Assembly (NCBI GenBank): GCA_013359225.1
Contig: JABWCG010000003.1
Location: forward strand, 48,783-112,782
Direction of reading: 5' to 3'
Origin: Candidatus Buchananbacteria bacterium
Lineage (GTDB): Bacteria > Patescibacteriota > Patescibacteriia > Buchananbacterales > UBA6539
DNA length: 64,000 nt
Under the pieces are notes generated by a model. That model was not told the DNA's origin. It ran no database searches and worked only from the letters and a program-made list of their open reading frames with translations. Positions within the stretch are counted from its first letter, which is position 1, and every line of letters begins with the position of its first letter. Position numbers and translations under genes: made by a program. Of this stretch, positions 6,022 through 63,905 are shown piece after piece.

Positions 6022-6035
6022 ACTCCCGCCAGGCC

Positions 6036-6383: not shown

Positions 6384-6404
6384 CCATTCAATTCAACTTG
6401 AAAC

Positions 6405-6432: not shown

Positions 6433-6445
6433 ATATAGTAAATTT

Positions 6446-7210: not shown

Positions 7211-7213
7211 TTC

Positions 7214-7846
7214 ATGCTAATAGTCAAAATTTTAGTAATCACCACTTTTATCACCTTTATTTTATTAGCCAGCATTGATGCCTCAATATTTGATAGCCGT
7301 TGGTACGAAAAACAGTTCACTAAAAATAATATTTACCAAACCTTAGACGCCAAGCGGGTTACTGACCAAACCGAGAATTTGTTTAGTTATCTTAAAAATG
7401 AAAATTCACTTGATTCACAGTATTACACCAATCGCGAAGTTACTCATCTGACCGATATTAAAAACATCATTAACATTCTACAAATTACAACCTTTATCAG
7501 TTTAGCCGGACTGGTCAGCGGCCTTTTACTAATTTACCAACGCGAAAAAAAAGCTGCTTTAATTAAAATCTTATCCATCGCGGCAGTGACGGCAATCGTC
7601 TTTTATACTTCGCTTGGCCTCCTTATTACTTACAATTTTGACCAATTTTTTTCAATCCTCCATCAGTTATCTTTTAGAAATGATTTTTGGTTACTTGATC
7701 CAACTACCGAGAACCTGATTAATATCTTTCCACCAAACCTATTTGCGGCACTCGGTTCAACGATTATTGCAAAAGCAATTTTGGCATCACTTATCACTTT
7801 GATTCTCGCTCGACTTTGGCTCCTGAAATCAAATAAAAAAGGTTGA
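7214..7846 (+). CDS. Integral membrane protein, DUF1461/TIGR01906-like
   Basis: 210 aa, multi-pass. The conserved block FRNDFWLLDPTTENLINIFPP resembles the TIGR01906 family. Confidence 0.4.
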   Translation: MLIVKILVITTFITFILLASIDASIFDSRWYEKQFTKNNIYQTLDAKRVTDQTENLFSYLKNENSLDSQYYTNREVTHLTDIKNIINILQITTFISLAGLVSGLLLIYQREKKAALIKILSIAAVTAIVFYTSLGLLITYNFDQFFSILHQLSFRNDFWLLDPTTENLINIFPPNLFAALGSTIIAKAILASLITLILARLWLLKSNKKG

Positions 7847-7857
7847 GTAACTCTTCG

Positions 7858-8580: not shown

Positions 8581-8618
8581 TCGCTACTCCTTTTTCGGTA
8601 GTTACCTAAATCGCCGTC

Positions 8619-9542: not shown

Positions 9543-9659
9543 CGGGCTTCACCTCCCTTGGTTTTTATAGCTCAAAAGCTTTCACCCTAATTGACAAAGA
9601 TCCTTTGAACATTCAATCAACAGGATTGACTGCTCAAACATCTTAATCAAAAAATAGGC

Positions 9660-9693
9660 GATGAGTGGTTTGATATTGTCCAAACCACTCATC
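9660..9693 (-). terminator. Strong hairpin with T-run (minus-strand orientation) between the ATPase and vWA genes; terminator or attenuator
   Basis: gatgagtggtttg-atattgtc-caaaccactcatc: 13-bp perfect stem. On the minus strand it is followed by gcctattttttga. Confidence 0.5.
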
Positions 9694-9717
9694 GAACACG
9701 AATCCTTCCTCTCGTAC

Positions 9718-10959: not shown

Positions 10960-10973
10960 CGGTACGTTTCTCC

Positions 10974-11699
10974 TTACCGGTTATAGATCAGATACGCCAA
11001 CCAAGCGATGCCGGTGGCAATGAATATCAGCGCTCCCAAAATGCACATGACGAAACGTCTCGTCCATGCTTCAAGTTTGGGATCAGTGTGGCCCTTCATT
11101 AGGTAGCCGGTCAAAGCGTCAATTAAGCGCCGACCAAGCCAGATGATTAGCCGTAGGGCGCAAAATATCAACACCCCAACGACAAAAAAACAAACCAACA
11201 TCAGGATCATTGCTACCGGGTATGAAAACCGCGGTGTTACATATGATCCAGACAGCACTTTGATTCTAGTAGTACCATCCGGCGCTTTCACCACCGAATA
11301 TACCAATGGCTCACGCCACTCAATCAGGGGATAGGAGACAATAAACCGGATCGGCGCTCCCCGAACCAACGGCTCTGGTAGCCTGACCGAAACACTTGTT
11401 TGCCACCACCACGGCCCCACCGCCCAGTTGTCGTCAACCAAGCCGACAAGTTTGTGACGGTAAACCATATGGTTGAAATACACCTCTTCCCAGTCAACAT
11501 AGTGAGCCGCGACTGCCGCGGGGTATTCCAAACTACGGTATGGACCAACATATGACTGGTCAAAAACCTGCCGGATCAAATGCAATTCCTGCACCTGATC
11601 GCTGTCGCTTACGCTCGAAACCAAGACCTTGCCAGTCTGGTCTTGCGCACTGGCAATGCCAAAGACTGCCAAACAAAAAATCATCGCTAAGTGCTTCAT
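10974..11699 (-). CDS. Exported protein with signal peptide and two C-terminal TM helices; first gene of the GC-rich island
   Basis: 241 aa. Signal peptide MKHLAMIFCLAVFGIASA, then a roughly 150 aa Trp-rich ectodomain (GPWWWQ), then two hydrophobic helices. No family recognised. Confidence 0.4.
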   Translation of the reverse strand: MKHLAMIFCLAVFGIASAQDQTGKVLVSSVSDSDQVQELHLIRQVFDQSYVGPYRSLEYPAAVAAHYVDWEEVYFNHMVYRHKLVGLVDDNWAVGPWWWQTSVSVRLPEPLVRGAPIRFIVSYPLIEWREPLVYSVVKAPDGTTRIKVLSGSYVTPRFSYPVAMILMLVCFFVVGVLIFCALRLIIWLGRRLIDALTGYLMKGHTDPKLEAWTRRFVMCILGALIFIATGIAWLAYLIYNR

Positions 11700-11836
11700 C
11701 GTAGACTCTCCCTCATGTTTGAGTTTGGATTCGTATAGTCAACAAACCTCGTTGCTTTTAGACGCGTCAAAAACACGTTAAAAGACCTTATAATATATAA
11801 AAAAAATAGCATTTTGTCAAGGTGACACTATCTCAT

Positions 11837-11886
11837 TTGACACTATCTTATACATCAGGTAATATATCCCCATAGGGGGGATATAT
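11837..11886 (+). promoter_or_regulatory. Copper operon promoter (TTGACA, 17 nt spacer, TAATAT) overlapping a CsoR-type operator palindrome atatatcccc-ata-ggggggatatat
   Basis: -35 at 11837-11842 and -10 at 11860-11865. The inverted repeat at 11862-11886 is an AT-flanked C4/G4 palindrome like known CsoR operators. A direct repeat tgacactatct occurs twice upstream (11823-11849). Confidence 0.5.
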
Positions 11887-11889
11887 ACT

Positions 11890-12198
11890 ATGAACAAAAA
11901 TTCCATCCAATCAACAGCCGCCAAACTCTTACTCACTATTATGGTGTCATTCATCATTAGTGCTTTCTTTTTAGCAGCACTAACAATAACGCCCGTCACT
12001 TATTCAGGGCACGACCAGTGCTTTAATAGTCAATGCGGACCGATTCAACACTTATTCCACGATTTCGTTATGTTGCCAGCGTTACTTACTAAAAACCTAA
12101 TGCTAATTATCATTTGCTTTATCATTTTATTCACCCCAATAGCAGTGGCGACAACACCAAAAAGCCCACCGCCAAGATTTACTTTAATAAACAACTAA
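11890..12198 (+). CDS. Small 2-TM membrane protein with a Cys/His-rich loop (HDQCFNSQCGPIQHLFHDF); first gene of the copper operon
   Basis: 102 aa, immediately downstream of the CsoR operator. Putative metal-binding loop between two helices. Confidence 0.4.
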   Translation: MNKNSIQSTAAKLLLTIMVSFIISAFFLAALTITPVTYSGHDQCFNSQCGPIQHLFHDFVMLPALLTKNLMLIIICFIILFTPIAVATTPKSPPPRFTLINN

Positions 12199-12203
12199 AC
12201 AAT

Positions 12204-12476
12204 ATGGATAAACGACATAAAACAACAACCAAAGATCGCGCTTTGCATCGAGTCCGAATTATTCAAGGCCATCTGACATCAATTGAAAAAATGCTAGAAG
12301 AAAATCGCTACTGTGTTGACATTGTTCATCAATCACGAGCGATTCAAAAAGCCCTAAAACAACTTGATATCCTTATTATTGAAAACCATCTCAAGGGTTG
12401 CGTCATTAATCAGATCAAAGGCGGTCAAGAACAAAAAACCACCAGTGAATTACTCAGACTCTTTGAGTACAAATAA
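12204..12476 (+). CDS. csoR: CsoR/RcnR-family copper-sensing transcriptional repressor
   Basis: Start chosen at MDKRHK; the ORF track's 12114 start overlaps the previous gene. The block RVRIIQGHLTSIEKMLEENRYCVDIVHQSRAIQKALKQLDILIIENHLKGCV carries the Cys...His...Cys ligand pattern of CsoR (DUF156). Confidence 0.8.
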   Translation: MDKRHKTTTKDRALHRVRIIQGHLTSIEKMLEENRYCVDIVHQSRAIQKALKQLDILIIENHLKGCVINQIKGGQEQKTTSELLRLFEYK

Positions 12477-12489
12477 ATAACTACAATCT

Positions 12490-13932
12490 ATGTCCCAACA
12501 TCATACTGAAGAAAACTTCAAACAGCACACATTTTACGTTGCCGGCATGCACTGTGCCAGCTGTGAAGTTTTAATTGAAAAAAAACTCCTCAAACAACCG
12601 GGCGTGGTATTCGCCAACGCCTCGTTAAAAGATGCTCAGGTTATCGTCAAAACTAATCCGGACACCCGCCTTAATCTAGCCGACCTCAACCGTGACATTG
12701 AACCGCTAGGCTACCAGCTTAAAACTTCACCGGTTGCCAAAGAAGTAACCAGCCTGTTTTATAAAAATAATTCAGGCAGCCTAACGTTAAACAAAAAAAG
12801 GTTTCACCAGCTCCTTAAAAGCGTGCTACTGGCATTATCATTTTTGGCAGTCTTTTTTGTTATTGAGCGTTTCCAGTTTGGCCGATTTGTTTCTGTCGAT
12901 GCCACATCAACCTACTCTGCCTTCTTCCTGCTCGGCTTGGTCGCCGGCGTCTCCAGCTGTGCGGCACTGATCGGGGGACTGCTTTTGTCCCTTATCAAAC
13001 ACTGGAACGAGGTCTACATTGACGCCGAAAAAACATCGCAAAAAGCAACACCACACCTATTGTTTCACACCGGCCGAATGGCGTCGTTCTTTGTGCTTGG
13101 AGGCGTATTAGGAATAATCGGCGACGCCATCACTTGGAATAACACCACCACCTATGCGCTGCTGACTATTGCCGTTTCGTTACTGATGATTATCTTGGCG
13201 TTTCAAATGCTTGGCGCTTCTTGGGCAACCAAACTAGCGCCGCGATTACCAAAATTTATCACGCGCGTTGCCACCAATGAACAATCGTTTCAGGGAAAAT
13301 TCATGCCGTTTGTCACTGGTGCGCTGACATTCTTTCTGCCGTGTGGTTTTACCCTCATCGCGCAGGGAGTGGCGCTCGCCACTGGCAGTTTTATGTCCGG
13401 AGCATTAATAATGACATTTTTTGCCTTTGGTACTCTGCCAATGCTAACAGCAATCAGTCTTACCGGGCTTACCTTCACCAGCCGACCCCATCTAACCGCC
13501 AAGTTCTCATACGTAGCCGGGGTTATTATTATCTTTTTTGCGCTCTACAACATCAACGGTCAATTTAACGTTCTGGGGCTACCGAGCTTAAGCGACATAA
13601 CTGTTTTGTCGAGTAAAAATGCCACCAACGATATGGCTGGTACGCCATACGCTGGCAGTGAAGAACAAATTATCTCGCTTGTTGCCAAAGGCTTTAGCTA
13701 CACACCAACCAGCCCGACATCACTCAAGGCAGGCATACCAACTAAACTCGTAGTGGATAATCAAGGAATTCAAGGCTGTGGCACCTACATGGCCTCCCGC
13801 GGGCTGATCAATGGTTTTGTCGCTCTAGAAAAAGGCGAAAATATTATTGACGTTGGTTCGCCAAAGCCCGGAACATACAAAATTACCTGCTCAATGGGCA
13901 TGGTGCCGCCGGTAACAATCACTATTAAATAA
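12490..13932 (+). CDS. HMA-domain membrane protein: N-terminal GMHCASC copper-binding domain, CcdA/DsbD-like polytopic core, C-terminal cupredoxin-like domain
   Basis: 480 aa. FYVAGMHCASCEVLIEKKL is the HMA domain. The TM core has Cys motifs (GVSSCAALIGG, FFLPCGFT). The C-terminal soluble domain ends with a Cys/Met-containing beta-strand, TYKITCSMGMVPPVTITIK. Confidence 0.6.
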   Translation: MSQHHTEENFKQHTFYVAGMHCASCEVLIEKKLLKQPGVVFANASLKDAQVIVKTNPDTRLNLADLNRDIEPLGYQLKTSPVAKEVTSLFYKNNSGSLTLNKKRFHQLLKSVLLALSFLAVFFVIERFQFGRFVSVDATSTYSAFFLLGLVAGVSSCAALIGGLLLSLIKHWNEVYIDAEKTSQKATPHLLFHTGRMASFFVLGGVLGIIGDAITWNNTTTYALLTIAVSLLMIILAFQMLGASWATKLAPRLPKFITRVATNEQSFQGKFMPFVTGALTFFLPCGFTLIAQGVALATGSFMSGALIMTFFAFGTLPMLTAISLTGLTFTSRPHLTAKFSYVAGVIIIFFALYNINGQFNVLGLPSLSDITVLSSKNATNDMAGTPYAGSEEQIISLVAKGFSYTPTSPTSLKAGIPTKLVVDNQGIQGCGTYMASRGLINGFVALEKGENIIDVGSPKPGTYKITCSMGMVPPVTITIK

Positions 13933-13936
13933 TCAC

Positions 13937-14158
13937 ATGGATAAAAAACTACTCATTAAAGGGATGCATTGTGACGCCTGCCTTAATTTGATCAAAATGG
14001 AGCTGGCTGATGCCGGATTAGAAAACAACATTAAAGAAATAAAATTACTCGACGGCCAGCAGCGAGGTTTTGTAACGCTGACTAATCCTTCTGAAGCAAA
14101 AATTATTCAGGCAATCACAGCTATCAATGCACTTGGACCATACCAGGTTGAAATTTAA
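13937..14158 (+). CDS. copZ: Copper chaperone CopZ (single HMA domain)
   Basis: 73 aa with GMHCDAC. Confidence 0.85.
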   Translation: MDKKLLIKGMHCDACLNLIKMELADAGLENNIKEIKLLDGQQRGFVTLTNPSEAKIIQAITAINALGPYQVEI

Positions 14159-14168
14159 CTGATCTAAT

Positions 14169-16553
14169 ATGATAACTAAAAAAATATTTCCGATTGTCGG
14201 AATGCATTGCGCTTCCTGCAAAATACTAATCGAAAAAATGGTCAAAAAATTAGATGGCGTCTCTGACGTTCAGGTTAACTATGCCACCGAAAAAATGACC
14301 GTAACCTACGACGAAAAAAAAATCGGCTCAGCCGACCTTTCGTCCGCCGTCAGCAAAGCCGGAAGCTATAGGCTAATTACCAATCAAGCCGGTGAAACTG
14401 TTTTAGCGTCACCGCCAGAAGCCAAAAAAATCACTCGTCACCATCACCAAGCATCGTCTACGGCCGGACACCACGATCACGCCTCAGCGCTAAAGAAAGA
14501 AGCCTACCTTAAACTTAAGAAAAAAGTCATCATGGTTGGCATTGGTTCAGTGCCATTCTTCTTAATGATGATTAATACTGTTTTGGCGTCGTTTGGCTTA
14601 ATGATGGTCGGCGAACAATTCGGGTTCATTAAAATTGAAGCATTAAACTATAGGCTTAACCTATTTTTCTTGCTGCAATTTTTGATCGCCACGCCTATTA
14701 TTTTCATCGGCGGCCAGCAATTCTTCCAAAGCGCTTGGCAGGCCTTAAAAGCCAAAGCGGCTAATATGGATACCTTAATTGCGCTTGGTACCTTCACGGC
14801 CTGGCTCTTCTCAACGTTGGTTACGTTTACGCCTCAATTTTTTGGATCGCTTAAAACTGACGTCTTTTTTGAAGCGGCGGTTTTTATTACCTTCTTTATT
14901 CTGATTGGACGACTCCTTGAAGCCAGGGCCAAAGGTCAAGCTAACGACGCTATTAAAAAACTGTTTGCCCTTCAGGCTAAAGAAGCAACTGTCATACGTC
15001 ACAATCAGGAAATTAAAATCTCCATTGATCAAGTAGTTACTGGCGACATTATCATCGTAAAGCCCGGAGAAAAAATTCCGGTTGATGGCACCATCGTTAA
15101 CGGTGCCAGCACGATTGATGAATCAATGGTCACTGGCGAATCGTTACCGGTTGAAAAAACGGTCGGCGACCAAGTCATTGGTTCAACCATCAACAAAACC
15201 GGAGCTTTTACTTTTGAGGCAAAAAAAGTCGGGTCCGAAACCCTGCTGGCGCAAATCATTAAAATGGTTGAAGAAGCTCAGGGCACGACCGCGCCAATTC
15301 AAAAGTTAGCCGACGCCATTTCAGGTATCTTTGTGCCAATTGTAGTTGTGATTGCCGTTATTGCCTTTTTATTTTGGCTATTTATTGCCCCGACGATTGG
15401 CTTAATTGGCACTGATGTGTCAGTGCTGCAGTTAGCTGTCTACATTGCAACAACCATATTGATTATTGCCTGCCCATGTGCGCTGGGGCTTGCGACCCCA
15501 ACTGCCGTTATGGTTGGCACCGGTCAAGCAGCGAGGCGCGGCATCTTAATCAAGGATGCCGCCGCTCTTGAGGGGGCTCAACAAATCAAAACCATTGTAT
15601 TTGATAAAACTGGAACTCTAACTAAAGGCATTCCCGAGGTAACTGATTTTGTCTTAACCGGCACCATTGATGAAAAAACCGTCCTGTCGTATGCCTATGC
15701 CCTGGAAAAAAATTCTGAACACCCTTTGTCTGACGCCATTACCAAATTTGCAACAAAATTCAAAAACAATGATACGGCCACAGCTTTTAAAGCCATTGAA
15801 GGTCGAGGTGTTGAAGGCGTTGTTAACAACCAAAACATAACGATTGGCAACCAACGACTGCTAAACGAAAAACATATTACCATTGATCAAACAACCCTCA
15901 ACCGGGTTGAGCAACTCAGCCGTCAAGGTAAATCAATCGCTTATATGGTAATTGCTGATTCATTAGTTGCCTTTTTCGGCCTCGCTGACGTTATTAAAGA
16001 TGAATCCGTTCAAGCCATCAAAAATCTCCAGGCCATGGGCATTACAGTTATTATGTTAAGCGGCGACAATCAAAAAACCGCTGACGCTATTGCCCAAAAA
16101 CTCGGCATCAACCAAGTTATTGCCGAGGTAATGCCTCAAGACAAAGCACAAATTATCAAGGAGCTGCAAAGTAAGTTAACCAACAAAGGGTACGTTGCCA
16201 TGGTGGGGGACGGCATTAACGATGCACCAGCCCTGGCTCAGGCTAATATCGGCATTGCTATGGGGACCGGCACCGACGTGGCAATTGAAACTGGTGATAT
16301 TGTTCTGGTTAAGGGTACGCTCGACAAAGTGGTAGAGGCAATAAAAATGTCACGCTCGACACTAAAGATCATCAAACAAAACCTATTTTGGGCGTTTGGG
16401 TATAATATTGTGGCCATCCCAGTAGCCGCCGGCATACTCTATCCATTTCTTGGAATTTTACTTTCGCCAATCATTGCCAGTGCCGCCATGGCATTTAGTT
16501 CAATTTCCGTCGTACTAAACAGTATCCGTTTAAAGGCAATTAAACTTAAATAG
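14169..16553 (+). CDS. copA: Copper-translocating P1B-type ATPase
   Basis: 794 aa. N-terminal HMA (GMHCASC), His-rich linker, CPC motif ([10 protein letters not shown]), DKTGTLT, and GDGINDAP. Confidence 0.95.
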
Positions 16554-16565
16554 CAATCTAACTAA

Positions 16566-16598
16566 AAAATAAATGCAAATGACTTGCATTTATTTTTT
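16566..16598 (+). terminator. Rho-independent terminator after copA
   Basis: aaatgcaaatgacttgcattt hairpin followed by a T6 run. Confidence 0.7.
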
Positions 16599-16619
16599 AG
16601 TTGTGGTACCATTATTAAT

Positions 16620-16997
16620 ATGCAAAATATCCTGAAAAAATCTGGGTTAAAAAATACAGCGTGCCGCAAACATATTATTGGTGTTTTAATTAAAACCCAC
16701 GAACCAATTTCCGCCGAAACACTATATCAAAAATTAAAAAAACAGTATGATCTGGTGACTATCTACCGCAATTTAGCAGCGTTCGAACAAAAGGGGATTG
16801 TTTTCAAAGAGCATATCAATAAAATTGACCGTTACTATATTGACAATGCTCAACATCACCACATCACGTGTACTAGCTGCGGAAAAACTGAGTGTGTTCC
16901 GTGCACCCACAACAATTTTAAAATTAAAAATTTTATTAATATTAAACATCAGCTGGTGCTAAGCGGCATCTGCCAAGGATGTACTAATCATTATTAA
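16620..16997 (+). CDS. Fur-family metalloregulator (likely Zur, given the adjacent ZIP transporter)
   Basis: Start taken at MQNILKK; the ORF track's 16584 start overlaps the copA terminator. Winged helix (ILKKSGLKNTACRKHIIGVL, IYRNLAAFEQKGIV) plus HHHITCTSCG...C...C metal sites. Confidence 0.8.
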   Translation: MQNILKKSGLKNTACRKHIIGVLIKTHEPISAETLYQKLKKQYDLVTIYRNLAAFEQKGIVFKEHINKIDRYYIDNAQHHHITCTSCGKTECVPCTHNNFKIKNFINIKHQLVLSGICQGCTNHY

Positions 16998-17000
16998 TAT

Positions 17001-17771
17001 ATGTTTCTAGTCATCATCGCTGCCACAGTCATCATTAGCCTTATTGCGTTAGGCAGCATTCTTGTTATCTTTCGTAAAGAAAACCAGCCTGCGGGCTTTC
17101 GTTCTTTAATCAGTCTCGCTGCCGGATCATTGCTAGCGGTTTCGTTTCTTGATTTATTACCAGAAGCCATTGAGGAAAGCGAGGGTATTTTCGAACCACA
17201 CTTAATCTCTGCTTTGGTGCTAGTCAGTATTCTAATATTTTTCATTTTTGAAAGAATTTTACACTGGCACCATTGTCCGGATCCAATCCATCCGGAGCAT
17301 AATCACCGCCATCATCAAAGGGGTTTAGTGTACCTCAACCTTATCGGTGACGCAATTCATAATTTTATTGACGGCTTTTTAGTCGCCGGCGCCTTCCTGC
17401 TTGATTTTCAAGTTGGCTTGTCTGTAACGGCGGCGGTTATTCTACACGAAATTCCTCAAGAGATTTCTGATTTCGGAGTTTTGCTCTATGCTGGACTCAG
17501 CCGCACCAAAGCTATTATCTACAACCTGACTGTTGCTTTAACTGCCATCCTCGGCGCTACAGTTTTTTATTTCTTGGGCGAATCATTTGAAATCATTATC
17601 CCGCTTATGGCCGCAGTTGCTGCTGGAAATTTTATCTATCTTGCAACAGCCGATTTGATTCCAGAACTACACCACGAAACCAACCGAGGCAAGATTGTTA
17701 CTCATTCCGCGTGGTTACTATTTGGTGTCGCGATGATTTATATTGTTGGTATTTTATTTCCCCACAGCTAA
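17001..17771 (+). CDS. zupT: ZIP-family zinc transporter (ZupT-like)
   Basis: 256 aa. Signature HEIPQEISDFGVL, His-rich loop (HCPDPIHPEHNHRHH). Separated from the Fur gene by 4 nt. Confidence 0.85.
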   Translation: MFLVIIAATVIISLIALGSILVIFRKENQPAGFRSLISLAAGSLLAVSFLDLLPEAIEESEGIFEPHLISALVLVSILIFFIFERILHWHHCPDPIHPEHNHRHHQRGLVYLNLIGDAIHNFIDGFLVAGAFLLDFQVGLSVTAAVILHEIPQEISDFGVLLYAGLSRTKAIIYNLTVALTAILGATVFYFLGESFEIIIPLMAAVAAGNFIYLATADLIPELHHETNRGKIVTHSAWLLFGVAMIYIVGILFPHS

Positions 17772-17858
17772 AATTCTAAAGATGGCTCAAGAAACTGCTT
17801 ATACCTTGTATGCTAGTTTTAACAACGCCAATCACCTCCATATCTAGCCATTAAATAA

Positions 17859-17889
17859 AAAGAGGTTGTGCATATACAACCTCTGTTCC
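17859..17889 (-). terminator. Minus-strand terminator downstream of the GC-rich gene 17902-18804
   Basis: agaggttgtgcatatacaacctct hairpin, preceded on the plus strand by aaataaaaag (a T-run on the minus strand). Confidence 0.5.
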
Positions 17890-17901
17890 AATGAACAAGC
17901 C

Positions 17902-19570: not shown

Positions 19571-20851
19571 TTAAAGAGTAAGTTCGTTTTCAACCTCAAT
19601 GTCAATTAAATCAGATTCAACCTCGGCATTTGTTTCAGCCTCCGACCGGGATCGTTCACGATCAGTATCTTTGTCCTCGGCGTCTCCACGGTCAGAGTCG
19701 TCAGCGTCAGGCGCTTTAATTTCGGTTTTAGTTCGAGTGTTAATCCGATTAGCAGCGTCAATCAGAGCGTCGATGTGAACGGGAAATTTTTCTTCTATTA
19801 CGGCTTTATCCTGAGATTTTTTGGCATCATCATTCTGATCATTTTTTCTATTACTATCGTTTTTCGAAGCATTAATTTTACCCTGCCAATCAATATCAAG
19901 CTGCTTGGCGCCATGCACGATGATTTGGGCTTCCTGCGCTAACCGAAGCGCTTCCTGAAATGTAATGAAAGCTTGATTATACTGTTTCAAATCCAGCTCA
20001 GCCTTCCCTTCGTTATATACCGACAAGGCGCTGTTAAGCTGGGCGCTAAGACGCGCGGCCACCGGCTCACTTAGAAAAGAATTTTTATCAACTATCTTTT
20101 TAACCTCAGCAATTTTATTTTCTGCGGCTTTCATCTTGTTTTTGGCGGCTATCTCAAAATCAGCCTCCGCCTTGGCGGAAATTTCTCCTTCGGCTTCAAC
20201 CCGACTTTCCGAGATCGCCTTAGTATCATCCAAAACGTCTAAAATAATTTCCGCCGCTCCATCATCTTTTTCGGATAAAGCAAGCAATATCTGGGCATGC
20301 CCGCGCAACACCGCCTCAAGCCGGGAATTCGCCGAGAAAGATTTCTCAGAGTCCTGGAATTTCTCGGCTAGCTGAGATGCCGTTTTTGTTTGAATGCTGA
20401 TATCATTTTTAACCGTTTCACTAATTGTTACGTCAAGACGATTTTTTACTTTTAATTTTTCCGCCTCTTCAAGCCGTCGGGCGACCTTATCGATTTCCCA
20501 TTCTACCTTTGATTCATCGGAAAAGTTGACCGCCGAACGAATTTTTTCATTTACCGAAATTTTTACCGGATACAATAAATCTCCCGGAACTGAATTCTCA
20601 GCCGCCAAAGAGGTGCCGCCGCTAACGGCAATAAATAAAGCAATTATCAAAGCTATTGGCATAAATTTTGTCTCCCTTAAGTTATTAATCAGCCCCCTTA
20701 AGGATATCAGACGGCCAGTCGGTTGGTTTCTTACGCCTGGCGTAGTCCGGACAAAATCTAACAATGCGGAGCGCATCGCCAATTTTTCAGCAACCGAAAG
20801 TTTTTCGGCTTGCTGCAGTTTTGCAATTTTTCTTATCTTTCTAATTATCAT
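19571..20851 (-). CDS. Putative anti-sigma factor, DUF5667-like (short cytoplasmic N-terminus, one TM, coiled-coil ectodomain, acidic C-terminal tail)
   Basis: 426 aa. Its start overlaps the stop of the ECF sigma gene. TM helix FMPIALIIALFIAVSGG. Long Ala/Glu/Lys-rich helical region. Architecture typical of CPR DUF5667 proteins. Confidence 0.55.
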   Translation of the reverse strand: MIIRKIRKIAKLQQAEKLSVAEKLAMRSALLDFVRTTPGVRNQPTGRLISLRGLINNLRETKFMPIALIIALFIAVSGGTSLAAENSVPGDLLYPVKISVNEKIRSAVNFSDESKVEWEIDKVARRLEEAEKLKVKNRLDVTISETVKNDISIQTKTASQLAEKFQDSEKSFSANSRLEAVLRGHAQILLALSEKDDGAAEIILDVLDDTKAISESRVEAEGEISAKAEADFEIAAKNKMKAAENKIAEVKKIVDKNSFLSEPVAARLSAQLNSALSVYNEGKAELDLKQYNQAFITFQEALRLAQEAQIIVHGAKQLDIDWQGKINASKNDSNRKNDQNDDAKKSQDKAVIEEKFPVHIDALIDAANRINTRTKTEIKAPDADDSDRGDAEDKDTDRERSRSEAETNAEVESDLIDIEVENELTL

Positions 20852-21344
20852 ACATGCCTTTTAATATTTTGATCGCTCGATGGATTCGCACTGAAACGAC
20901 GTTTGGTGAAAGGTTTAAAATTTTCGCAATCTCTTTGACCTGGAGCCCTTGAAGATATTTTAGTTCAAGTGGTTCAGACAACTCCTCATTTTTCTCCCTT
21001 AACTTCTGCAGTACGGCGCTGACATCAATCGCGTCATCAATATGTTCAGATTTACTGTCTTTAAAAACCGAATCTCCGGACACTTCTTGGATTTCTTCAA
21101 GCGAAGCTTCCTTTTTCCGACGCACATAATCAATAACCAGGTTGCGGGCAATCCGATACAGCACCGCTTTCGGGTAGGTTATATCCTGACCTTCCGCCAC
21201 CATACCCCAAAGCCGGCAAAACGACTCCTGAGACAATTCTTTGGCCAGTTCGCGCTCATAGATGCGAAAGTAACAAAATCTAAAGATAGCATCTGCATGC
21301 TTGTCATAAAAATCAACAAATTGTTTTTCGGTTGTTAGATGCAT
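20841..21344 (-). CDS. ECF-type RNA polymerase sigma-70 family factor
   Basis: 167 aa. Region 2 (FRFCYFRIYERELAKELSQESFCRLW, YRIARNLVIDYVRRKK) and region 4 helix-turn-helix (LKYLQGLQVKEIAKILNLSPNVVSVRIHRAIKILK). Confidence 0.85.
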   Translation of the reverse strand: MHLTTEKQFVDFYDKHADAIFRFCYFRIYERELAKELSQESFCRLWGMVAEGQDITYPKAVLYRIARNLVIDYVRRKKEASLEEIQEVSGDSVFKDSKSEHIDDAIDVSAVLQKLREKNEELSEPLELKYLQGLQVKEIAKILNLSPNVVSVRIHRAIKILKGMYDN

Positions 21345-22098: not shown

Positions 22099-22935
22099 AT
22101 GCCACTAGGTATGAAACAAACCGTCATATCAACACTAATTACTTGCACACTAATCGTTGGTTGTACCAAACCGGCTGAGTTTTCAGTACCAGCTAATCAG
22201 AACCCGACCGAGGCCACTTCTACTTCCCAAGCCGAAATTGATTTTGAAACTATTGAAGTACGATTACCGATTCTTATTTACCATCATATTAGGGAATATC
22301 GCGACACCGATTCCGCAAACGACAAAACTTTTATTGTCAGCCCCGGCCGCTTACGCGAACAATTCCAATATCTCAAAGATAACAATTTTACCACAATCAC
22401 TTTTAAAAATCTGACTGATTATTTTAGCGGGCAGTTTAGTTTGCCGGAAAAACCCGTTATCATCAGTTTTGACGACGGCGTTATTAGCCAGTATGAAAAC
22501 GCTTTTCCTTTATTAAAAGAATTTAATTTTAATGCCACCTTTTTTATTTTTGCTAATCCGGTCGGTAAAAGTAAGAACTATATGTCCTGGGAACAATTAG
22601 CTGAACTTCGTGACCAAGGAATGGAAATTGGTTCACATGGCTGGTATCACCAGTACCTAACGCGCATCAACGCCGATGAATTAAACCGCGAACTGATTCA
22701 AAGCAAACAAACTCTTGAAACTAATTTAAAAATCAAAGTTGACGCTATTGCTTACCCCTTTGGTGATATTAATGAGGCAGTAACTGGTAAAATTAAAGAG
22801 GCTGGTTATCTGGCCGCTCGCGATATTGTTAACGGGGCTACTCACCAAAAAGCCGATTTGTTCAAACTCAAAGGCTATTTTATCACCAACGACTTCAATC
22901 GCTTTAAATCAATCGTTAATAAAGTAACTAATTAA
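22099..22935 (+). CDS. Polysaccharide deacetylase (NodB homology domain), predicted lipoprotein
   Basis: 278 aa. Lipobox LIVGC. NodB motifs ISFDDGV and GSHGWYH. Confidence 0.8.
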   Translation: MPLGMKQTVISTLITCTLIVGCTKPAEFSVPANQNPTEATSTSQAEIDFETIEVRLPILIYHHIREYRDTDSANDKTFIVSPGRLREQFQYLKDNNFTTITFKNLTDYFSGQFSLPEKPVIISFDDGVISQYENAFPLLKEFNFNATFFIFANPVGKSKNYMSWEQLAELRDQGMEIGSHGWYHQYLTRINADELNRELIQSKQTLETNLKIKVDAIAYPFGDINEAVTGKIKEAGYLAARDIVNGATHQKADLFKLKGYFITNDFNRFKSIVNKVTN

Positions 22936-28776: not shown

Positions 28777-29352
28777 ATGGCTGAACTACCAGATTTTGCG
28801 AATAAAACCGACCAGGAGCTGGTCAATTTGACCCTTGAAAATCAGGATCATTTTTTACATATTGTTAATCGCTATCAGCAAAAATTACTCTCGTTTATTC
28901 TACGAATTTCGAATGTCGCGCCCGACGAAGCTCATGACCTCCTCCAAGAGGTCTTTATTAAAGTGTATAAAAATCTCAACGGTTATGACCCAAGCCTAAA
29001 ATTTTCTTCCTGGATTTATCGTATTACCAGAAATCATGTTATCAGTAATTACCGAAAAATCAAAAATAAACCCCAGGTACTAAGCTGGGAAGTTGATGAG
29101 GAAAGCCTCAGCAGTCTTACGGCCGAAATTAATATTGAGAAATCAACTGACCAGGCATTGCTACGAGAACAGTTGGCCGAATCACTGGAAAAACTCAAGC
29201 CAAAATACCGTGAAGTTCTCATCTTGCGGTATTTTGAAGAAAAAAGTTATGATGAAATTTCTGACATCATTAAAAAACCGCGCGGCACGGTCGGCACCCT
29301 GATTAATCGGGCGAAAACCCAACTACAAGCAATCTATCAACCAAAAATATGA
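28777..29352 (+). CDS. ECF-type RNA polymerase sigma factor
   Basis: 191 aa. Region 2 (DEAHDLLQEVFIKVYKNLNGYDP, WIYRITRNHVISNYRK) and region 4 (LILRYFEEKSYDEISDIIKKPRGTVGTLINRAKTQL). Confidence 0.85.
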   Translation: MAELPDFANKTDQELVNLTLENQDHFLHIVNRYQQKLLSFILRISNVAPDEAHDLLQEVFIKVYKNLNGYDPSLKFSSWIYRITRNHVISNYRKIKNKPQVLSWEVDEESLSSLTAEINIEKSTDQALLREQLAESLEKLKPKYREVLILRYFEEKSYDEISDIIKKPRGTVGTLINRAKTQLQAIYQPKI

Positions 29353-30074
29353 ACCAAGATTTAGGAAAAAATATTTTAGAAAAAATTAAAGAAAGCCACA
29401 TTAAACCGACTCCGCGGTGGGAATTTTTACTCAAAGATTATGTGATGTGGATCATTTTTATCATTGCTATTTTAGTTGGTAGCTTAGCCACTTCAGTTAC
29501 CATCTTCATGCTCCGCCACGAGAATTGGGATTACTATCAAGCTCAGCCAAGCGCCATAACCACCATTCTAATTAATCTGCCATACTTTTGGTTACTTATC
29601 CTGTTAGCATTTCTCGGACTGGCCTGGTACAACATCAAACACACTAATAAAGGCTACCGATATAATACGCTGGCAGTGCTTGGCATTAGCGTTATTGCCA
29701 GTATTCTGATTGGTAGCGTGTCATACAGCGTTGGTCTTGGTGAAGACTTAGAAGACATTTTCTATAAACGATTTCCTTTTTACCACCACTTTATGGAAAA
29801 TCGCGCCAGACAGCTGTTTAGTCCCGCCGGTCCAATTTTGGGCGGTGTAGTGGTTAATGTTAATAGTAGTCAAGTTGAAATTCAGGACTTCAATGGCCGG
29901 TTATGGATTATCAGCACTTCAACTACCCAATTTGACATTGGTGACCGAATTATCCTGGTCGGAAAAAAATTCGAAGGCGACACGTTTGAAATTGAAATTT
30001 TAAAACCTTGGTTCAAACAACATAATCGTTTAATTGAATTTCATCTGCAAGCACCGCCGCCAAGGACGCGGTAG
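29349..30074 (+). CDS. Putative cognate anti-sigma factor / membrane protein
   Basis: 241 aa. Overlaps the sigma gene stop by 4 nt. Cytoplasmic N-terminus followed by several TM helices. Confidence 0.4.
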   Translation: MNQDLGKNILEKIKESHIKPTPRWEFLLKDYVMWIIFIIAILVGSLATSVTIFMLRHENWDYYQAQPSAITTILINLPYFWLLILLAFLGLAWYNIKHTNKGYRYNTLAVLGISVIASILIGSVSYSVGLGEDLEDIFYKRFPFYHHFMENRARQLFSPAGPILGGVVVNVNSSQVEIQDFNGRLWIISTSTTQFDIGDRIILVGKKFEGDTFEIEILKPWFKQHNRLIEFHLQAPPPRTR

Positions 30075-58603: not shown

Positions 58604-59143
58604 TTATTCAACAACTTCAATTTCAGTATATTTGATGCCCCAGCGTACGGCTGACGCGCGATCCTTCATCCAGATGTCAGCGCGATAGTAATACCGGGCA
58701 TTCATTCGGTCTTGCACCGTAAAAATCCGGTCACCAAAGTATTCGGGAATCCGCACTTTGGTGCCAAACGGCAAAAAGTTGGCGGCAATCACGTTTTCTT
58801 CGCCATTCTCACACAAATTAAACCCATTGGCAGTAATACACGGACTGGCATCAGTCTGGTCAACGGTTGAAGAATAGGAAGTAATCGGTATTGTGTAGGT
58901 TTTAACTACCGTATACTCAGTTTCCTTAATCGGGCTGATTAAAACCACAGAGTTATTGGCTTCGGTTTCGCTGGTTTCCTCAATTACCTGGTCAACTGCC
59001 CGCACCACCAGGTCGGGAAGCATTACGCTGCCGTCTGGCTGGGCTGCCGCCACGCTGTAATGGGGGAACATGAACTCAAATACCAAGACCAACAAGACGA
59101 TAATCTCGGTTTTACTGCGTCTGATTGTTCGTAAAGTTTTCAT
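58604..59143 (-). CDS. 3D-domain protein (MltA-like / YuiC-like cell-wall-associated), N-terminal TM anchor
   Basis: Start taken at MKTLRTIRR; the ORF track extends to 59218. C-terminal GTKVRIPEYFGDRIFTVQDRMNARY...ADIWM carries the conserved Asp residues of the 3D domain. Confidence 0.55.
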   Translation of the reverse strand: MKTLRTIRRSKTEIIVLLVLVFEFMFPHYSVAAAQPDGSVMLPDLVVRAVDQVIEETSETEANNSVVLISPIKETEYTVVKTYTIPITSYSSTVDQTDASPCITANGFNLCENGEENVIAANFLPFGTKVRIPEYFGDRIFTVQDRMNARYYYRADIWMKDRASAVRWGIKYTEIEVVE

Positions 59144-59291
59144 AGGCTTTAAACAAATAAAAAATTCCCTATACCTTGGGAAGTGTATCACCTTAACACA
59201 AAGCCTAATTTTTGTCAAGTGTCTAACCTAAAATAAAAACCTCTCTCAAATTCATGAGAGAGGGTCACAAAAGAACGGTTTGGCCCGATAT

Positions 59292-61190
59292 TCAGGCCGA
59301 AATCGTCTTGCGACGAAGAACAAACGTGCCGAAACTGACCAGAACCACGACCAGCAGTAACAGCCCCAGGGCCGAAGTAGCCGGCACGGAAGCCATATCG
59401 CCGCCGTCCAACGGATCCGAGCCGAAGGTGTTCTCCTGACCGTCATTCATGCCGTCGTTATCGGTATCAGAGTCGTTGGCATCCAGGTCGGTGCCGGTAG
59501 GGTTGGAGTCCGGGTTGTACGGATTGTACGCCCCGTCGCCGTCATACCAGACTTCCTGGTGATCGTTTAGCCCATCGTCGTCTGAGTCAGCATCGTTGGG
59601 GTTGGTTCCCAGTGTCGCTTCTTCGGCGTCCGACAAACCGTCGTTGTCAGCGTCAGGCTCAATAACTGAGCCGGGAGGCGCCACAACGAATTCCGAGAAG
59701 TGCACCACCTGCACCGTCAACATGTTGTTGGCGAGGTCTCGCGAGATAACCGTCGCTTCCTCGGTAGTGCCGTCGGCGTTGACGGTAATTACCGACAGAG
59801 TGCTCTCGTCGAGGCCTTCGATTTCGGCGTCGGTGTACTTTACTACCAGCGTTCCGGGCGGGTCAAAGACGAGCCCGTCTTCGCCAAGATCGCGCCGGAT
59901 CAAGTTACCGGTCGGCGGCTGCTGGATTTCTTCAACTGGCGTGATTGGCGTTGTCATCGTGATCGTCGCCGTGCCTGCCTTTGGCATCAATGCCACTTCG
60001 GAGGTTTTCCCAGCAGCTTTTGCCGGAGACTTCTTTGCCGCCGACGAAATCTGCGTTCCCGTATCAAGCGTTAAGCTGGTACCGGCGCCGTCGGTGAGGT
60101 ACAGCGGATCAATCAACTGCCCACCTTCGGTCAGCGCCAAAACAGCCTCAATCGCCAACGTGGAAATATTCAGACCATTATGGTCGGTCTGGGTGTCGAT
60201 GTAGGCGAGACGCGTCCCGCCTTCCGAAGCCGACACCAGCGCCTGGTTGCCCGCAAGGGTCATCCCAACAGGCGTCCACGTGGTAGGGCTGCCGTCAAGA
60301 AGCTCGCTGGTTTTGACCAGTATCACCTCAAAATCCGACAGCGGAATCGTTCCGGCCGGGTCCAAATCCGAGTAGGCGCCGTTGATGTCTTCGGAATAAA
60401 AGATCAACGTGCCGTCCTGAGAAAACTGCGGACTCGTGACGTAGAATGCGCCGTTGGTAAACGGGATCACCTTGCCGCTAAAGCTGGTGATCGGCAGCGT
60501 TGCGCTGTTGAGGTCTTTGACCAGATATAGCCGGCGGGTGGTGTTAGTCAACGGCCACTCCACCAGCAGGTTGTCGCCGTCCGGAGACAGCACGGGGTTG
60601 ATGAACAACGCGAAGTTGCCCAACAACTTTTGAGCGGTCGCGATGATCGGCGTGCCATCGGCTTCAATCTGAATGCGGTACACGCCTTCGTTCACGATCT
60701 CGGGGACCGAAAAGTCCACCGTGACAAAACTCATCCAGTAGGTGCCGTTTGAGCCGATGGTGACACTGGGATTACGCACCCCAATGTCCGCGTCCGACAG
60801 ACCAAGGTCGGATGCTTTCAAGATGTGTTGCGTCACAGTGCCGTCGGCAACCGCGACTTTCGAGATGGTTGGCCGGGTGCCGGCCGAAGAAGTAAACAAC
60901 ACGTATTCGTCGTTCGGGCTCCACGCGAGTGGCGACCAAACGATGGAGTGTGTGCTGTCCATCAACTGCGCAGCCGTGGCAACGTTGGTCGGGTCAATGG
61001 TCCACACCGTGTTCGTATTGCCCATGTAGGCAAGCTTGTCCGCGGCATGGTTCCAGTGGGGGTAAAACGCTCCGCCAGTCGGTCGGTGCAGAAACGTTTC
61101 GTTCCCCATGTCGTAGGTGATGAAGTTTGTTGCGTTCGCAACAAAACTTCCGACCATCATAATGATGGCCATCAATACAGTCTTTTTCAT
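59292..61190 (-). CDS. Large GC-rich exported protein: TolB-like beta-propeller repeats, thrombospondin-type-3-like Asp-rich Ca-binding repeats, C-terminal hydrophobic helix with basic tail (sorting-signal-like)
   Basis: 632 aa. Signal peptide. Repeated SPDG/SQDGT propeller motifs. DADNDGLSDAEE, DSDDDGLNDHQE and DSDTDNDGMNDGQE are TSP3/DxDxDG repeats. The C-terminus is ...SVPATSALGLLLLVVVLVSFGTFVLRRKTISA. Confidence 0.6.
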   Translation of the reverse strand: MKKTVLMAIIMMVGSFVANATNFITYDMGNETFLHRPTGGAFYPHWNHAADKLAYMGNTNTVWTIDPTNVATAAQLMDSTHSIVWSPLAWSPNDEYVLFTSSAGTRPTISKVAVADGTVTQHILKASDLGLSDADIGVRNPSVTIGSNGTYWMSFVTVDFSVPEIVNEGVYRIQIEADGTPIIATAQKLLGNFALFINPVLSPDGDNLLVEWPLTNTTRRLYLVKDLNSATLPITSFSGKVIPFTNGAFYVTSPQFSQDGTLIFYSEDINGAYSDLDPAGTIPLSDFEVILVKTSELLDGSPTTWTPVGMTLAGNQALVSASEGGTRLAYIDTQTDHNGLNISTLAIEAVLALTEGGQLIDPLYLTDGAGTSLTLDTGTQISSAAKKSPAKAAGKTSEVALMPKAGTATITMTTPITPVEEIQQPPTGNLIRRDLGEDGLVFDPPGTLVVKYTDAEIEGLDESTLSVITVNADGTTEEATVISRDLANNMLTVQVVHFSEFVVAPPGSVIEPDADNDGLSDAEEATLGTNPNDADSDDDGLNDHQEVWYDGDGAYNPYNPDSNPTGTDLDANDSDTDNDGMNDGQENTFGSDPLDGGDMASVPATSALGLLLLVVVLVSFGTFVLRRKTISA

Positions 61191-61519
61191 CCCTGGACTC
61201 CTTGGTTACGGTTGTGGTTGGTTCGTCTACGCTACGTGCTCCTGCCAATTGTCAATGTGCTTGTCTTCCCTCCCTGTTTTTGTCTTGATAGCCAAAAAAT
61301 ACAATAACGACAAAAGCATTTGTACTCTACTACAAAATCAGTAAATTGTAAAGGGTAGTATAACAAAATTTTGACTAAAAATAAACAAAAAATCCATTTT
61401 TTAAAAAATTTTTAATTTACAAATTGGGCTCGGCGTGTTAATTAATAAAAGGCAAAAGCCTGCAATGTTCATTACAACCAAACCTCAGTATATAGCCACC
61501 CACCGAGGAGAAGCCCGCA

Positions 61520-62479
61520 ATGAAGCTTCGTCAGATTCGATTTGGACCGGTCCTCGGAGCTTCCGGGGTCCACAACTTCTTTGGGGAAGGCTACCCCTAC
61601 CACCGCTGGCTCAAGCTGGCGCTACCACTACATTTTCGGTTTGATGGCATGACGTTTGTCGCCAAAACGACAACCTTGCACAAAACCGAAGGCAATATGC
61701 CGATGCGTGATGACGGCGTCACACCGCAAGAGTTTCATCCGCGCTGCATTGTCGTCAAGCCGTACCACGGCGTAGCGCTTAACGCGGTTGGTTTGTCCGG
61801 ACCCGGTGCGGCTGATTTGTTTGAGCGGGGATTGTGGCAAGCACGGACCGAACCGTTCATGCTGTCATTTATGTCGACCAAGCCGACACCCGATGAACGG
61901 ATTGTCGAAGCAATTGATTTCTTCAAGCTGCTTGAAGAGTATCTCGATTACTTCAACGCGCCAATCGCGCTCCAAGCCAACTTCTCGTGTCCTAATGTCA
62001 AACTCGACCCGAACAAATTGATTGCTGAAGCGGCTAGCGTCTTGGACGAAGCCCGCCGAATCAAAGTGCTACTTGTTCCAAAGTTCAACGCGCTGATCCC
62101 CGTCGCGGCGGCGAAAAAAATCGCGGATCATCCAAACTGCGCGGGGCTATGTGTGTCTAACACGATTCCCTGGAAAGATTTGCCAGCAAGCTGGCAAATC
62201 AAATACTTCGGCGACGTTGTTTCGCCGCTGGTAGAATTTGGCGGCGGGGGATTATCCGGCGCGCCACTACTGCCGTTGGTTGTTGACTGGGTGCGTCAAG
62301 CGCGCACAGTCGGCATCACCAAACCAATTAACGCTGGCGGCGGCATTCTGCACCCAAACAACATTTGGGAACTGAAAGCGGCCGGCGCTGATTCCGTTTT
62401 TCTTGGATCAGTTACCATGCTTCGCCCGTGGCGAATGGCACAACTGATTCAAACCGCATACCAAGCCTTTGGCCGATAA
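61520..62479 (+). CDS. Dihydroorotate dehydrogenase family protein (class 1-like TIM barrel), GC-rich
   Basis: 319 aa. NFSCPN (active-site Cys context), GGGLSGAPLLPL, PINAGGGI. SD sequence gaggag upstream. About 55-60% GC. Confidence 0.6.
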   Translation: MKLRQIRFGPVLGASGVHNFFGEGYPYHRWLKLALPLHFRFDGMTFVAKTTTLHKTEGNMPMRDDGVTPQEFHPRCIVVKPYHGVALNAVGLSGPGAADLFERGLWQARTEPFMLSFMSTKPTPDERIVEAIDFFKLLEEYLDYFNAPIALQANFSCPNVKLDPNKLIAEAASVLDEARRIKVLLVPKFNALIPVAAAKKIADHPNCAGLCVSNTIPWKDLPASWQIKYFGDVVSPLVEFGGGGLSGAPLLPLVVDWVRQARTVGITKPINAGGGILHPNNIWELKAAGADSVFLGSVTMLRPWRMAQLIQTAYQAFGR

Positions 62480-63905
62480 ACCTGGAGAACCCTTCATCGT
62501 GAAACCCATTCGACTCAAAACGAAACATTTACACCTGGACTCCGGCGAAATTATCCCAGCGGTAGTGGTTTGTACACCAAATCAACCGCTGGAAATTCTC
62601 GCATACGAATCCGCGTGTGACCTTGATATGGGTGAGTACCACCACATTGCGCTGGCACGCTGTGATCCGCACGTTCATGCGCGACAAAACATTGTGCCGT
62701 CGCGCGAAGAGTTCGAGGCACTCAAAATCCACGAGGGTGAATTTGATGACGTCATCCCAAAAATTCACGCCGCAAATCTTCACTACGACGTGTATCGCGC
62801 TTCATTAGCCGCGCTCAAAGGCGGGGTCTGGCTGATTGGCTGCATGGGAAACACTCCCTGGGGACCAATCGGAGTCCAGCGCTGGCAACAAACGTTGGAC
62901 TTGTACCGGCGCCACGCCCTGGTTTACACTCACGTCTGGCCGCGCCTGGAGCCTGGTGTTCCGGCAATCGACGGACAAGAGGGTAAAGACTTCGGATCCA
63001 CTTTTGGCGGAGCTGGGCTGAGCGCCGATGAACGTGATGCGATGTTCGCACTGTGGGCGGGACAAGACGTTTCGTTTCATAACGACATGCCACGACCCGA
63101 CCAAACCATTGATGAGTTCTTTCGCCACGCTACAGCAGCGCTGGAAGCAAAGTTTCACCTATACTACAACGGTGAAACAGTGCTACAAAGCCAGCGTGAA
63201 ACCATCGCGTTGGCGCGCAAACACCACCTGCGTTCACTGCGGACGCGACACGTCCCGACCGGACCGGCGCTGGAAATGTTGTTAGCCGAACGCAAAGTTG
63301 GCGGACTCAAACTGCCCATTGAAGTTGGCCTTGATTACCTATATTGGAGCTGGCCAATGGTCGTTGGACATCGCACCGGCAAAATCAATTACCGCCGGCC
63401 GGCCTTTCCGTCGGAGCAAGATCAGCTACGACTGATTGCCGTGTTACGCGAAGTTGCTTTTGACCCGGAAATCCACCTGGGCAGTGATCACGCGCCCCAT
63501 TCGCCGGAAGCCAAACAGTACAAAAACGGGCTGCCAGGCAGTCCGGGAACCAGGCTGCTGGAACACAGCCATCAAATCCATGCTCACCTTGTCCACGAGC
63601 ACAATTTCACCTGGCATCAAATTGACCATCTGGCGGCGATTCATCCGACCAAATATCTCGAACGGTACTACGTCGGACATTTTGCCTATCCGATTGCCAC
63701 GATGGCGTCGGGCGCGATGTGTAATCTGGTCGTTTTTGATCCGGACTGTGGCTATTGCGCTGATGAACGCATTTTGCGCACGCAGCTACACGATCCGGAT
63801 TACCACAACGCACTTTGGCTGGAGCCGCTTCGGGGCAAAGTACTTTTCACTGTCGTTAATGGCCGCGTCTACGACGTTAGTGATGAAATCAAAGCCCTGA
63901 ACTAG
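62469..63905 (+). CDS. Dihydroorotase-like cyclic amidohydrolase, GC-rich
   Basis: 478 aa as tracked; the start codon appears to be TTG and overlaps the upstream stop. Metal-ligand motifs DPHVHAR (HxH) and GSDHAPH (dihydroorotase signature). Confidence 0.6.
   Translation: MADKPGEPFIVKPIRLKTKHLHLDSGEIIPAVVVCTPNQPLEILAYESACDLDMGEYHHIALARCDPHVHARQNIVPSREEFEALKIHEGEFDDVIPKIHAANLHYDVYRASLAALKGGVWLIGCMGNTPWGPIGVQRWQQTLDLYRRHALVYTHVWPRLEPGVPAIDGQEGKDFGSTFGGAGLSADERDAMFALWAGQDVSFHNDMPRPDQTIDEFFRHATAALEAKFHLYYNGETVLQSQRETIALARKHHLRSLRTRHVPTGPALEMLLAERKVGGLKLPIEVGLDYLYWSWPMVVGHRTGKINYRRPAFPSEQDQLRLIAVLREVAFDPEIHLGSDHAPHSPEAKQYKNGLPGSPGTRLLEHSHQIHAHLVHEHNFTWHQIDHLAAIHPTKYLERYYVGHFAYPIATMASGAMCNLVVFDPDCGYCADERILRTQLHDPDYHNALWLEPLRGKVLFTVVNGRVYDVSDEIKALN

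Follow-up and report, generated by a model that had tools for sequence, protein, structure and literature searches.

A lineage-conserved beta-propeller/TSP3 protein of Candidatus Buchananbacteria, probably membrane-anchored, with a C-terminal tail that resembles sorting signals

The 64,000-nucleotide stretch of Candidatus Buchananbacteria DNA analysed here (contig JABWCG010000003.1, positions 48,783 to 112,782; hereafter the window) encodes on its minus strand, at 59292..61190, a putative surface protein of 632 amino acids, which begins with an ATG and has its stop codon at 59292-59294. The open reading frame (ORF) is exactly as quoted in a preliminary description of this DNA, and its product matches, at 100% identity, the NCBI protein HUU49_04660 from a metagenome-assembled genome of Candidatus Buchananbacteria, placed in the Parcubacteria within the Candidate Phyla Radiation (CPR). 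A Shine-Dalgarno sequence (AAGGAG, 61198..61203, minus strand) can be read directly 7 nucleotides 5' of the ATG, and the AT-rich intergenic region 5' of the gene contains a merely promoter-like candidate site, TTTACA-17-TAGAGT (61324..61352, minus strand), which was picked out by a consensus scan only. A terminator-like stem-loop followed by a T-run, TTTTTATTTT, lies 29 nucleotides 3' of the stop codon (59240..59263, minus strand). Judging by the promoter-like hexamers, the Shine-Dalgarno sequence and the stem-loop with its T-run, the gene looks like a self-contained transcription unit.

The first 20 residues of the protein (61131..61190, minus strand), MKKTVLMAIIMMVGSFVANA, show to the eye the n/h/c layout of a signal peptide, with MKK, a hydrophobic core and ANA, and residues 2-15 are helical in an AlphaFold2 (AF2) model of the 632-residue protein, which was built on a 24-sequence family alignment and has an overall predicted local distance difference test score (pLDDT) of 84.5 and a predicted template modelling score (pTM) of 0.78. 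Homologues carry equivalent signal-peptide-like N-termini, and the N-terminal signal peptide claimed in the preliminary description is upheld as a signal-peptide-like segment. From approximately residue 21 to residue 335 (60186..61130, minus strand; boundary approximate) the model forms a beta-propeller, with strands across 23-332 and pLDDT values mostly above 90, whose four-stranded blades are superposable on those of TolB. In Foldseek comparisons against the PDB the top matches of the model are the TolB structures 1crz, 4pwz and 2w8b (best E-value 8.5e-11, probability 1.0); the TM-score is 0.47 when normalised by the TolB chain length, over about 330 aligned columns at 14-15% identity. Sequence profiles give weak matches, namely to Pfam PD40 (E-value 1e-4, 22.5 bits against a gathering score of 20.9) and to NCBIfam TolB (TIGR02800; 22.9 bits over 95 residues against a cutoff of 343, and so far from equivalog membership), and a PF26550 Tricorn_2nd match is precomputed on HUU49_04660 and its relatives. 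Thus, the protein shares the PD40-type propeller fold with TolB (PDB 1CRZ, 2W8B), whereas it lacks the TolB N-terminal domain and adds a beta-sandwich, thrombospondin type 3 (TSP3) repeats and a membrane anchor. CPR bacteria are not known to possess an outer membrane or a Tol-Pal system. The TolB-like propeller previously claimed for the protein was therefore supported by the model and the structural matches in so far as the fold is concerned; as the name of a family it would be wrong.

The propeller is followed by a family-specific, sandwich-like region of beta-strands at approximately residues 336-506 (59673..60185, minus strand; AF2 strands 339-504), which matched no Pfam family and in which the motifs TP..P..E, YTDAE..GLDES, RD..NN.ITV and GFS are conserved (alignments A2, A4 and A6). 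The Ala/Lys/Thr stretch that had been described as a linker does exist, at residues 384-405 (59976..60041, minus strand), but it is a disordered stretch between strands of the sandwich, with pLDDT below 50 at 387-400, and the closest orthologue, P0002, is 11 residues shorter at this point. The TSP3 region proper spans residues 510-598 (59397..59663, minus strand) and was recovered both by Pfam TSP3_bac (PF18884), with 44.4 bits in two stretches (E-value 1.5e-11, gathering threshold 25 bits), and by a regular expression. The latter located three calcium-binding-type repeats, DADNDGLSDAEE (residues 513-524, 59619-59654), DADSDDDGLNDHQE (533-546, 59553-59594) and DSDTDNDGMNDGQE (573-586, 59433-59474); of the three to four DxDxDGxxDxxE repeats reported earlier, three are therefore present and a fourth is not. 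The region is only partly ordered in the AF2 model. From what is established about how thrombospondin type 3 repeats behave chemically, we infer that the Asp-rich loops bind calcium. In having such repeats beside a C-terminal sorting or anchoring element the protein resembles the bacterial TSP3 surface proteins typified by CglD and MtsD of Myxococcus, from which it differs in having only three repeats, no lipobox and no Cys-containing MYXO-CTERM signal. The corresponding equivalog models score only 18.2 bits (CglD, NF033765) and 9.5 bits (MtsD, NF047639) against cutoffs of 400 and 800.

The extreme C-terminus consists of a juxtamembrane motif VPATS at residues 602-606 (59373..59387, minus strand), which is an instance of the family pattern [LVMI]-P-x-x-x, a predicted transmembrane (TM) helix, ALGLLLLVVVLVSFGTFVL, at residues 607-625 (59316..59372, minus strand; hydropathy 2.8-2.9, AF2 helix 607-631), and a short, putatively cytoplasmic basic tail, RRKTISA, at residues 626-632 (59295..59315, minus strand), whose basic clusters are conserved family-wide. 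This tripartite appearance had been noticed before and was confirmed, as was the remark that VPATS is neither canonical PEP nor LPXTG. The suggestion that the protein is a PEP-CTERM- or LPXTG-type substrate fared less well, as all the curated sorting-signal models score below their cutoffs: the window tail reaches 12.9 and 10.9 bits with PEP_CTERM (TIGR02595; cutoff 16), 16.3-17.0 bits with IPTL_CTERM (TIGR04174; cutoff 20.5), 20.5 bits with midcut_by_XrtH (cutoff 45) and 10.5 bits with LPXTG_anchor (TIGR01167; cutoff 15.9), and the tail of the closest orthologue gave zero matches to curated C-terminal sorting models. The Pro-Glu-Pro signature that precedes the helix in PEP-CTERM proteins is missing, both from the window protein with its V-P-A-T-S and from the family consensus [LVMI]-P-[ALV]-[ATS]-[SPG]. 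From the T-L..W-G signature of IPTL-CTERM the T-L and the W are absent, and the Gly at +7 is common to 17 of the 36 family tails. None of these 36 tails comes up to the cutoff of any curated sorting model; at E<=1 the matches are 6 to IPTL_CTERM, 6 to midcut_by_XrtH, 2 to PEP_CTERM and 2 to LPXTG, and 30 tails match no exosortase-type model even at this level.

When 1.84 billion cluster representatives were searched exhaustively with phmmer, approximately 35 proteins proved to have the propeller/sandwich module in common with the window protein, or its C-terminal region, or the two together. Profile searches with the N-terminal 508 residues (alignment A2) were dominated by generic PD40/TolB proteins and added no family members, those with the sandwich region (alignment A6) gave zero matches, and scans of genome contigs and of metagenome contigs each returned a locus of Parcubacteria ARS52 as their sole result (L006 and L016, which are identical). 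In four CPR genomes, i.e. the window, L001 (protein P0002), L002 (P0004) and L007 (P0013; Patescibacteria GCA_028688055.1), the orthologues are located directly upstream of a small conserved gene and the series infB-rbfA-DHH-clpP-rny-ymdB. Across these genomes the infB product, IF-2, shows 62-74% identity, as against only 31-44% for the surface proteins. Their common ancestor must therefore already have had the gene, which is an old, fast-evolving component of this CPR lineage. Further members from Patescibacteria or Parcubacteria are P0043 (L013) and the ARS52 protein P0010, which is without TSP3 repeats. Larger proteins containing the module, P0031 and P0044, are encoded on GC-rich contigs with RND/OEP efflux genes, i.e. 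those of diderm bacteria, and Candidatus Hydrogenedentota is the annotated source of a protein that clusters with P0094. An additional observation from the loci L011 and L014 (11972-13816) is that in both a gene with FHA and sigma-54-activator domains stands beside the family member. The same search also recovered giant TSP3 proteins that end in a TM helix and basic tail without the motif; plain C-terminal TM anchoring is therefore common in TSP3 surface proteins.

Taking these features together, we propose, with a probability of roughly 0.6, that the gene encodes a type I, single-pass membrane-anchored, adhesin-like cell-surface protein. It would be exported by the Sec pathway with the help of a cleavable N-terminal signal peptide, leaving the ectodomain outside, with a six-blade-type TolB/PD40-like propeller as the ligand-binding head, followed by the family-specific beta-sandwich and by the three calcium-binding TSP3 repeats, which would form a stalk. 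The C-terminal helix (residues 607-625) would span the cytoplasmic membrane, with RRK on the cytoplasmic side according to the positive-inside rule. The [LVMI]-P just outside the helix would belong to a cassette of TSP3 repeats, Phi-P, TM helix and basic residues that is common to other CPR and diderm homologues. On the simplest reading this cassette would, in this organism, be a permanent anchor, not subject to cleavage, and the protein would serve for binding or adhesion at the cell surface.

The principal alternative, which we regard as doubtful, is that the tail is a genuine PEP-CTERM/IPTL-CTERM-like signal missing from the curated collections, with the form Phi-P-x-x-[SGP], TM helix and Arg-rich end. 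After Sec export a dedicated membrane enzyme, of the exosortase/archaeosortase type or of another type, would then recognise the motif and remove the helix; the ectodomain would either be set free or become attached anew, to a polymer or lipid of the surface. Several observations favour this and count against a plain anchor. Pro603 is nearly invariant (alignment A4), being one of 13 invariant or nearly invariant columns in the full-length MAFFT alignment of 24 sequences, and the Phi-P motif is conserved beyond what a mere anchor would need. When tails were aligned, independently of the motif, by the basic residue that comes first behind the hydrophobic core, and [LVMI]-P was sought 19-32 residues upstream, it was present in 29 of 32 family tails versus 10 of 33 control TSP3 proteins with a C-terminal TM helix (Fisher p 6e-7, which is not a true probability as the sequences are related). 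The spacing from [LVMI]-P to the first basic residue is likewise fixed, with a mode of 24 residues in 14 of 31 occurrences. The motif aligns without offset to VP in PEP-CTERM and to IP in IPTL-CTERM, V602-P603 corresponding to positions 1-2 of both models, and the sub-threshold PEP_CTERM, IPTL_CTERM and midcut_by_XrtH matches obtained with the window tail alone all start exactly at these two residues. As in those families, the tails also have frequent Gly at +7 and Leu at +8 (20 of 36), and are found on several unrelated passengers. In most members the tail comes after TSP3 repeats, and in P0010, P0025, P0028, P0037 and P0139 it comes directly after the sandwich domain; in diderm bacteria the cassette of TSP3 repeats and tail is furthermore borne by unrelated passenger domains, namely those of a Beta_helix protein and a PQQ-propeller protein of Hydrogenedentota. 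In the diderm locus L011 four adjacent genes (4881-17891) end in a TM helix and basic tail: they encode a 1569-residue TSP3 protein, P0044, a protein with Exo_endo_phos and Ig domains, and the Beta_helix protein. Two of these tails are nearly identical, and the last approximately 120 residues of P0044, comprising TSP3 repeats and tail, recur on the Beta_helix protein (62% identity over the aligned 175 residues). Such modularity is expected of a sorting signal, and equally of a mobile anchoring cassette. An anchor in the inner membrane of a diderm bacterium would moreover strand an adhesin-like protein in the periplasm, which would favour further sorting.

Against an uncurated signal stand the failure of every curated model to reach its cutoff, the absence of even marginal exosortase-type matches from most tails, and the poor conservation of the residues after the tail Pro. 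Moreover, no candidate enzyme came to light. The Pfam annotation of 31 window ORFs, including all those with multiple TM segments, contains no sortase, exosortase, rhomboid or CPBP family, no gene of these four kinds was found in approximately 110 kb of related CPR loci, and Exosortase_EpsH (PF09721) is absent from the Pfam annotation of all the fetched loci and from the window. As the search in this genome, which comprises the 119.6-kb contig and other contigs, covered 64 kb, it does not establish that such an enzyme is absent. The preliminary description had also called for a comparison of the tail with other secreted proteins of the genome; run on the window ORFs, this found no second ORF with a comparable tail there, while the motif proved to be conserved in homologues. 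In the other CPR-type loci (approximately 110 kb) the family member is here too the only tail-bearing gene, so that in approximately 176 kb of CPR-type sequence none but the family member itself carries such a tail. Finally, the literature that we searched held no report tying exosortase, archaeosortase or PEP-CTERM to CPR bacteria or Patescibacteria.

The alternative of a recent horizontal acquisition concerns the origin of the gene rather than the function of its tail. The preliminary description had noted that the gene is GC-rich, and this is correct: it is the most GC-rich ORF of the window, with 57.2% GC and a GC content at third codon positions (GC3) of 0.717, the highest among 52 window ORFs (mean 0.456, standard deviation 0.074). 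The conclusion that it was acquired because it is GC-rich is too simple, as four CPR genomes have an orthologue in the same place adjoining infB, and it is GC-enriched in each. A recent transfer from a GC-rich donor, which would make the gene no native component of the lineage, would be in keeping with a GC3 that is uniformly high along the whole gene and similar to that of the diderm homologues (0.75-0.78), and with the GC-richness of the neighbouring pyrD-like and amidohydrolase-like genes. We nevertheless consider it improbable in view of the synteny, the divergence of the surface proteins relative to IF-2, and the recurrence of the GC excess, by 6-13 points over the flanks, in every AT-rich carrier (the window, L001, L002, L004, L005, L007, L013 and L015); in the GC-rich diderm loci the GC content of the family gene matches that of the genome. 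The GC excess is thus a family trait that requires an explanation other than recent transfer. An ancient transfer from a GC-rich lineage is possible, but would not explain unameliorated synonymous sites in orthologues that are only 31-44% identical. The GC-rich neighbours mentioned above lie at 61520-63905 on the plus strand, where a dihydroorotate-dehydrogenase-like gene (PF01180, E-value 1e-12) overlaps a 478-residue ORF without a Pfam match and with a faint amidohydrolase resemblance (LGSDHAPH), both with a GC content of 0.54. In L001 and L007 a GC-rich amidohydrolase-family gene adjoins the orthologue of the surface protein.

In sortase substrates nothing is generally conserved better than the Thr at the scissile bond. 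In the family tails a Thr occupies the fourth position in only 7 of 36 and is absent from the nearest orthologues (LPIGS, LPVVH, VPVVS and LPANS), so that the Thr-Gly site is not conserved. That VPATS is a degenerate LPXTG motif, cleaved after Thr605 by a sortase that links the protein to peptidoglycan as in Gram-positive bacteria, is accordingly very improbable, despite the shared layout of motif, hydrophobic stretch and RRK, the fit of VPATS and of some homologous motifs (LPATS, VPATN, IPATT, MPTTS, VPLTS) to a loose [LIV]PxT[GAS], and the report of sortases in more than half of CPR genomes, with a patchy distribution outside Microgenomates (PMC6744442), since the LPXTG_anchor score is below its cutoff, no ORF with a sortase-like TLxTC motif was found in the window or in the CPR-type loci L001-L008, L013 and L015, and the same tail occurs in diderm bacteria with RND/OEP systems. 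The only match in the window to a loose TLxTC-type expression, TLITC in the ORF at 22099-22935, belongs to a polysaccharide deacetylase according to Pfam and was rejected as a sortase.

The product of the conserved downstream neighbour of the surface-protein gene (58604..59218, minus strand) is small, with a TM segment at its N-terminus and, at its C-terminus, a highly conserved domain of approximately 100 residues; translation probably begins in reality at the Met of MKTLRT, near 59143. The neighbour adjoins the surface-protein gene, or is one gene away from it, in the window, L001 (10148-10834), L004 (4514-5053) and L007 (7637-8167; L007/L008), with 52-63% identity, and its domain is characterised by the pattern TAYSSTVDQTD..PC.TANGFN...AANFLPFGTK..IPE.FGD..FTV.DRMN.RY. 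No Pfam family and no PDB relative was recovered for it, and a single-sequence AF2 model (pLDDT 37.7) was unusable. A resemblance to 3D/DPBB-like cell-wall hydrolase domains, seen by eye, was dropped, as it was unsupported by Pfam and PDB sequence searches. The small protein and the surface protein may be linked in function, or may simply be encoded close together.

Several other genes of the window deserve mention. A GC-rich block (0.50-0.53) at 7858-11699 on the minus strand encodes a bpMoxR AAA+ ATPase (PF20030, E-value 3e-35; 9718-10959) and a VWA protein (8619-9542), flanked by ORFs at 7858-8580 and 10974-11699 that have TM segments but match no Pfam family. The Pfam model PF20030 takes its name from the "MoxR-vWA-beta-propeller ternary systems", and the block has the gene content of such a system. 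A link between this block and the surface protein was considered and rejected, as the two are 48 kb apart and are not syntenic in other loci. Beside the block, at 7214-7846 on the plus strand, is a homologue of the lipoprotein intramolecular transacylase Lit (PF07314, E-value 2.5e-31), which suggests lyso-form lipoprotein modification in this CPR bacterium. At 12490-13932 (plus strand) we observed an unusual fusion of HMA, a DsbD_2 domain with 7 TM segments and a cupredoxin-like domain, which is adjoined by a 794-residue ORF (14169-16553, plus strand) that begins with an HMA-like segment and has about 9 TM segments. The latter is probably a heavy-metal P-type ATPase, and the region 12490-16553 looks like a copper-handling locus. 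Finally, in two regions of the window, 19571-21344 on the minus strand and 28777-30074 on the plus strand, a gene for a sigma factor of the extracytoplasmic function (ECF) type precedes a membrane-protein gene, one with DUF5667 (19571-20851) and the other weakly Yip1-like (29349-30074); these are probable sigma/anti-sigma pairs.

The prevailing view is that CPR bacteria live in attachment to other cells; little is understood of their envelope or of how their surface proteins are anchored. A propeller head on a predicted calcium-binding stalk, conserved in the lineage and encoded next to infB, is therefore a reasonable candidate for a molecule of cell contact or ligand binding. Such a binding or adhesion role is suggested by the architecture together with a report that surface proteins with beta-propellers are abundant in CPR bacteria (PMC5220378), and the earlier idea that the protein may be an adhesin directed toward a host cell is plausible. 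On present evidence the protein appears to be an ordinary membrane-anchored propeller/TSP3 surface protein, whose conserved tail resembles sorting signals and matches none of them. It is unlikely, in our estimation, that Phi-P-x-x-[SGP], about 20 hydrophobic residues and an Arg-rich end define a new exosortase-like class of signal common to Parcubacteria and diderm phyla such as Hydrogenedentota; were this the case, CPR bacteria would be expected to have a further enzyme that processes the tail, and a pathway of surface attachment. If the motif is a processing signal, a new sorting pathway would be common to CPR and diderm bacteria, and the tail would offer a sequence handle for listing their surface proteomes.

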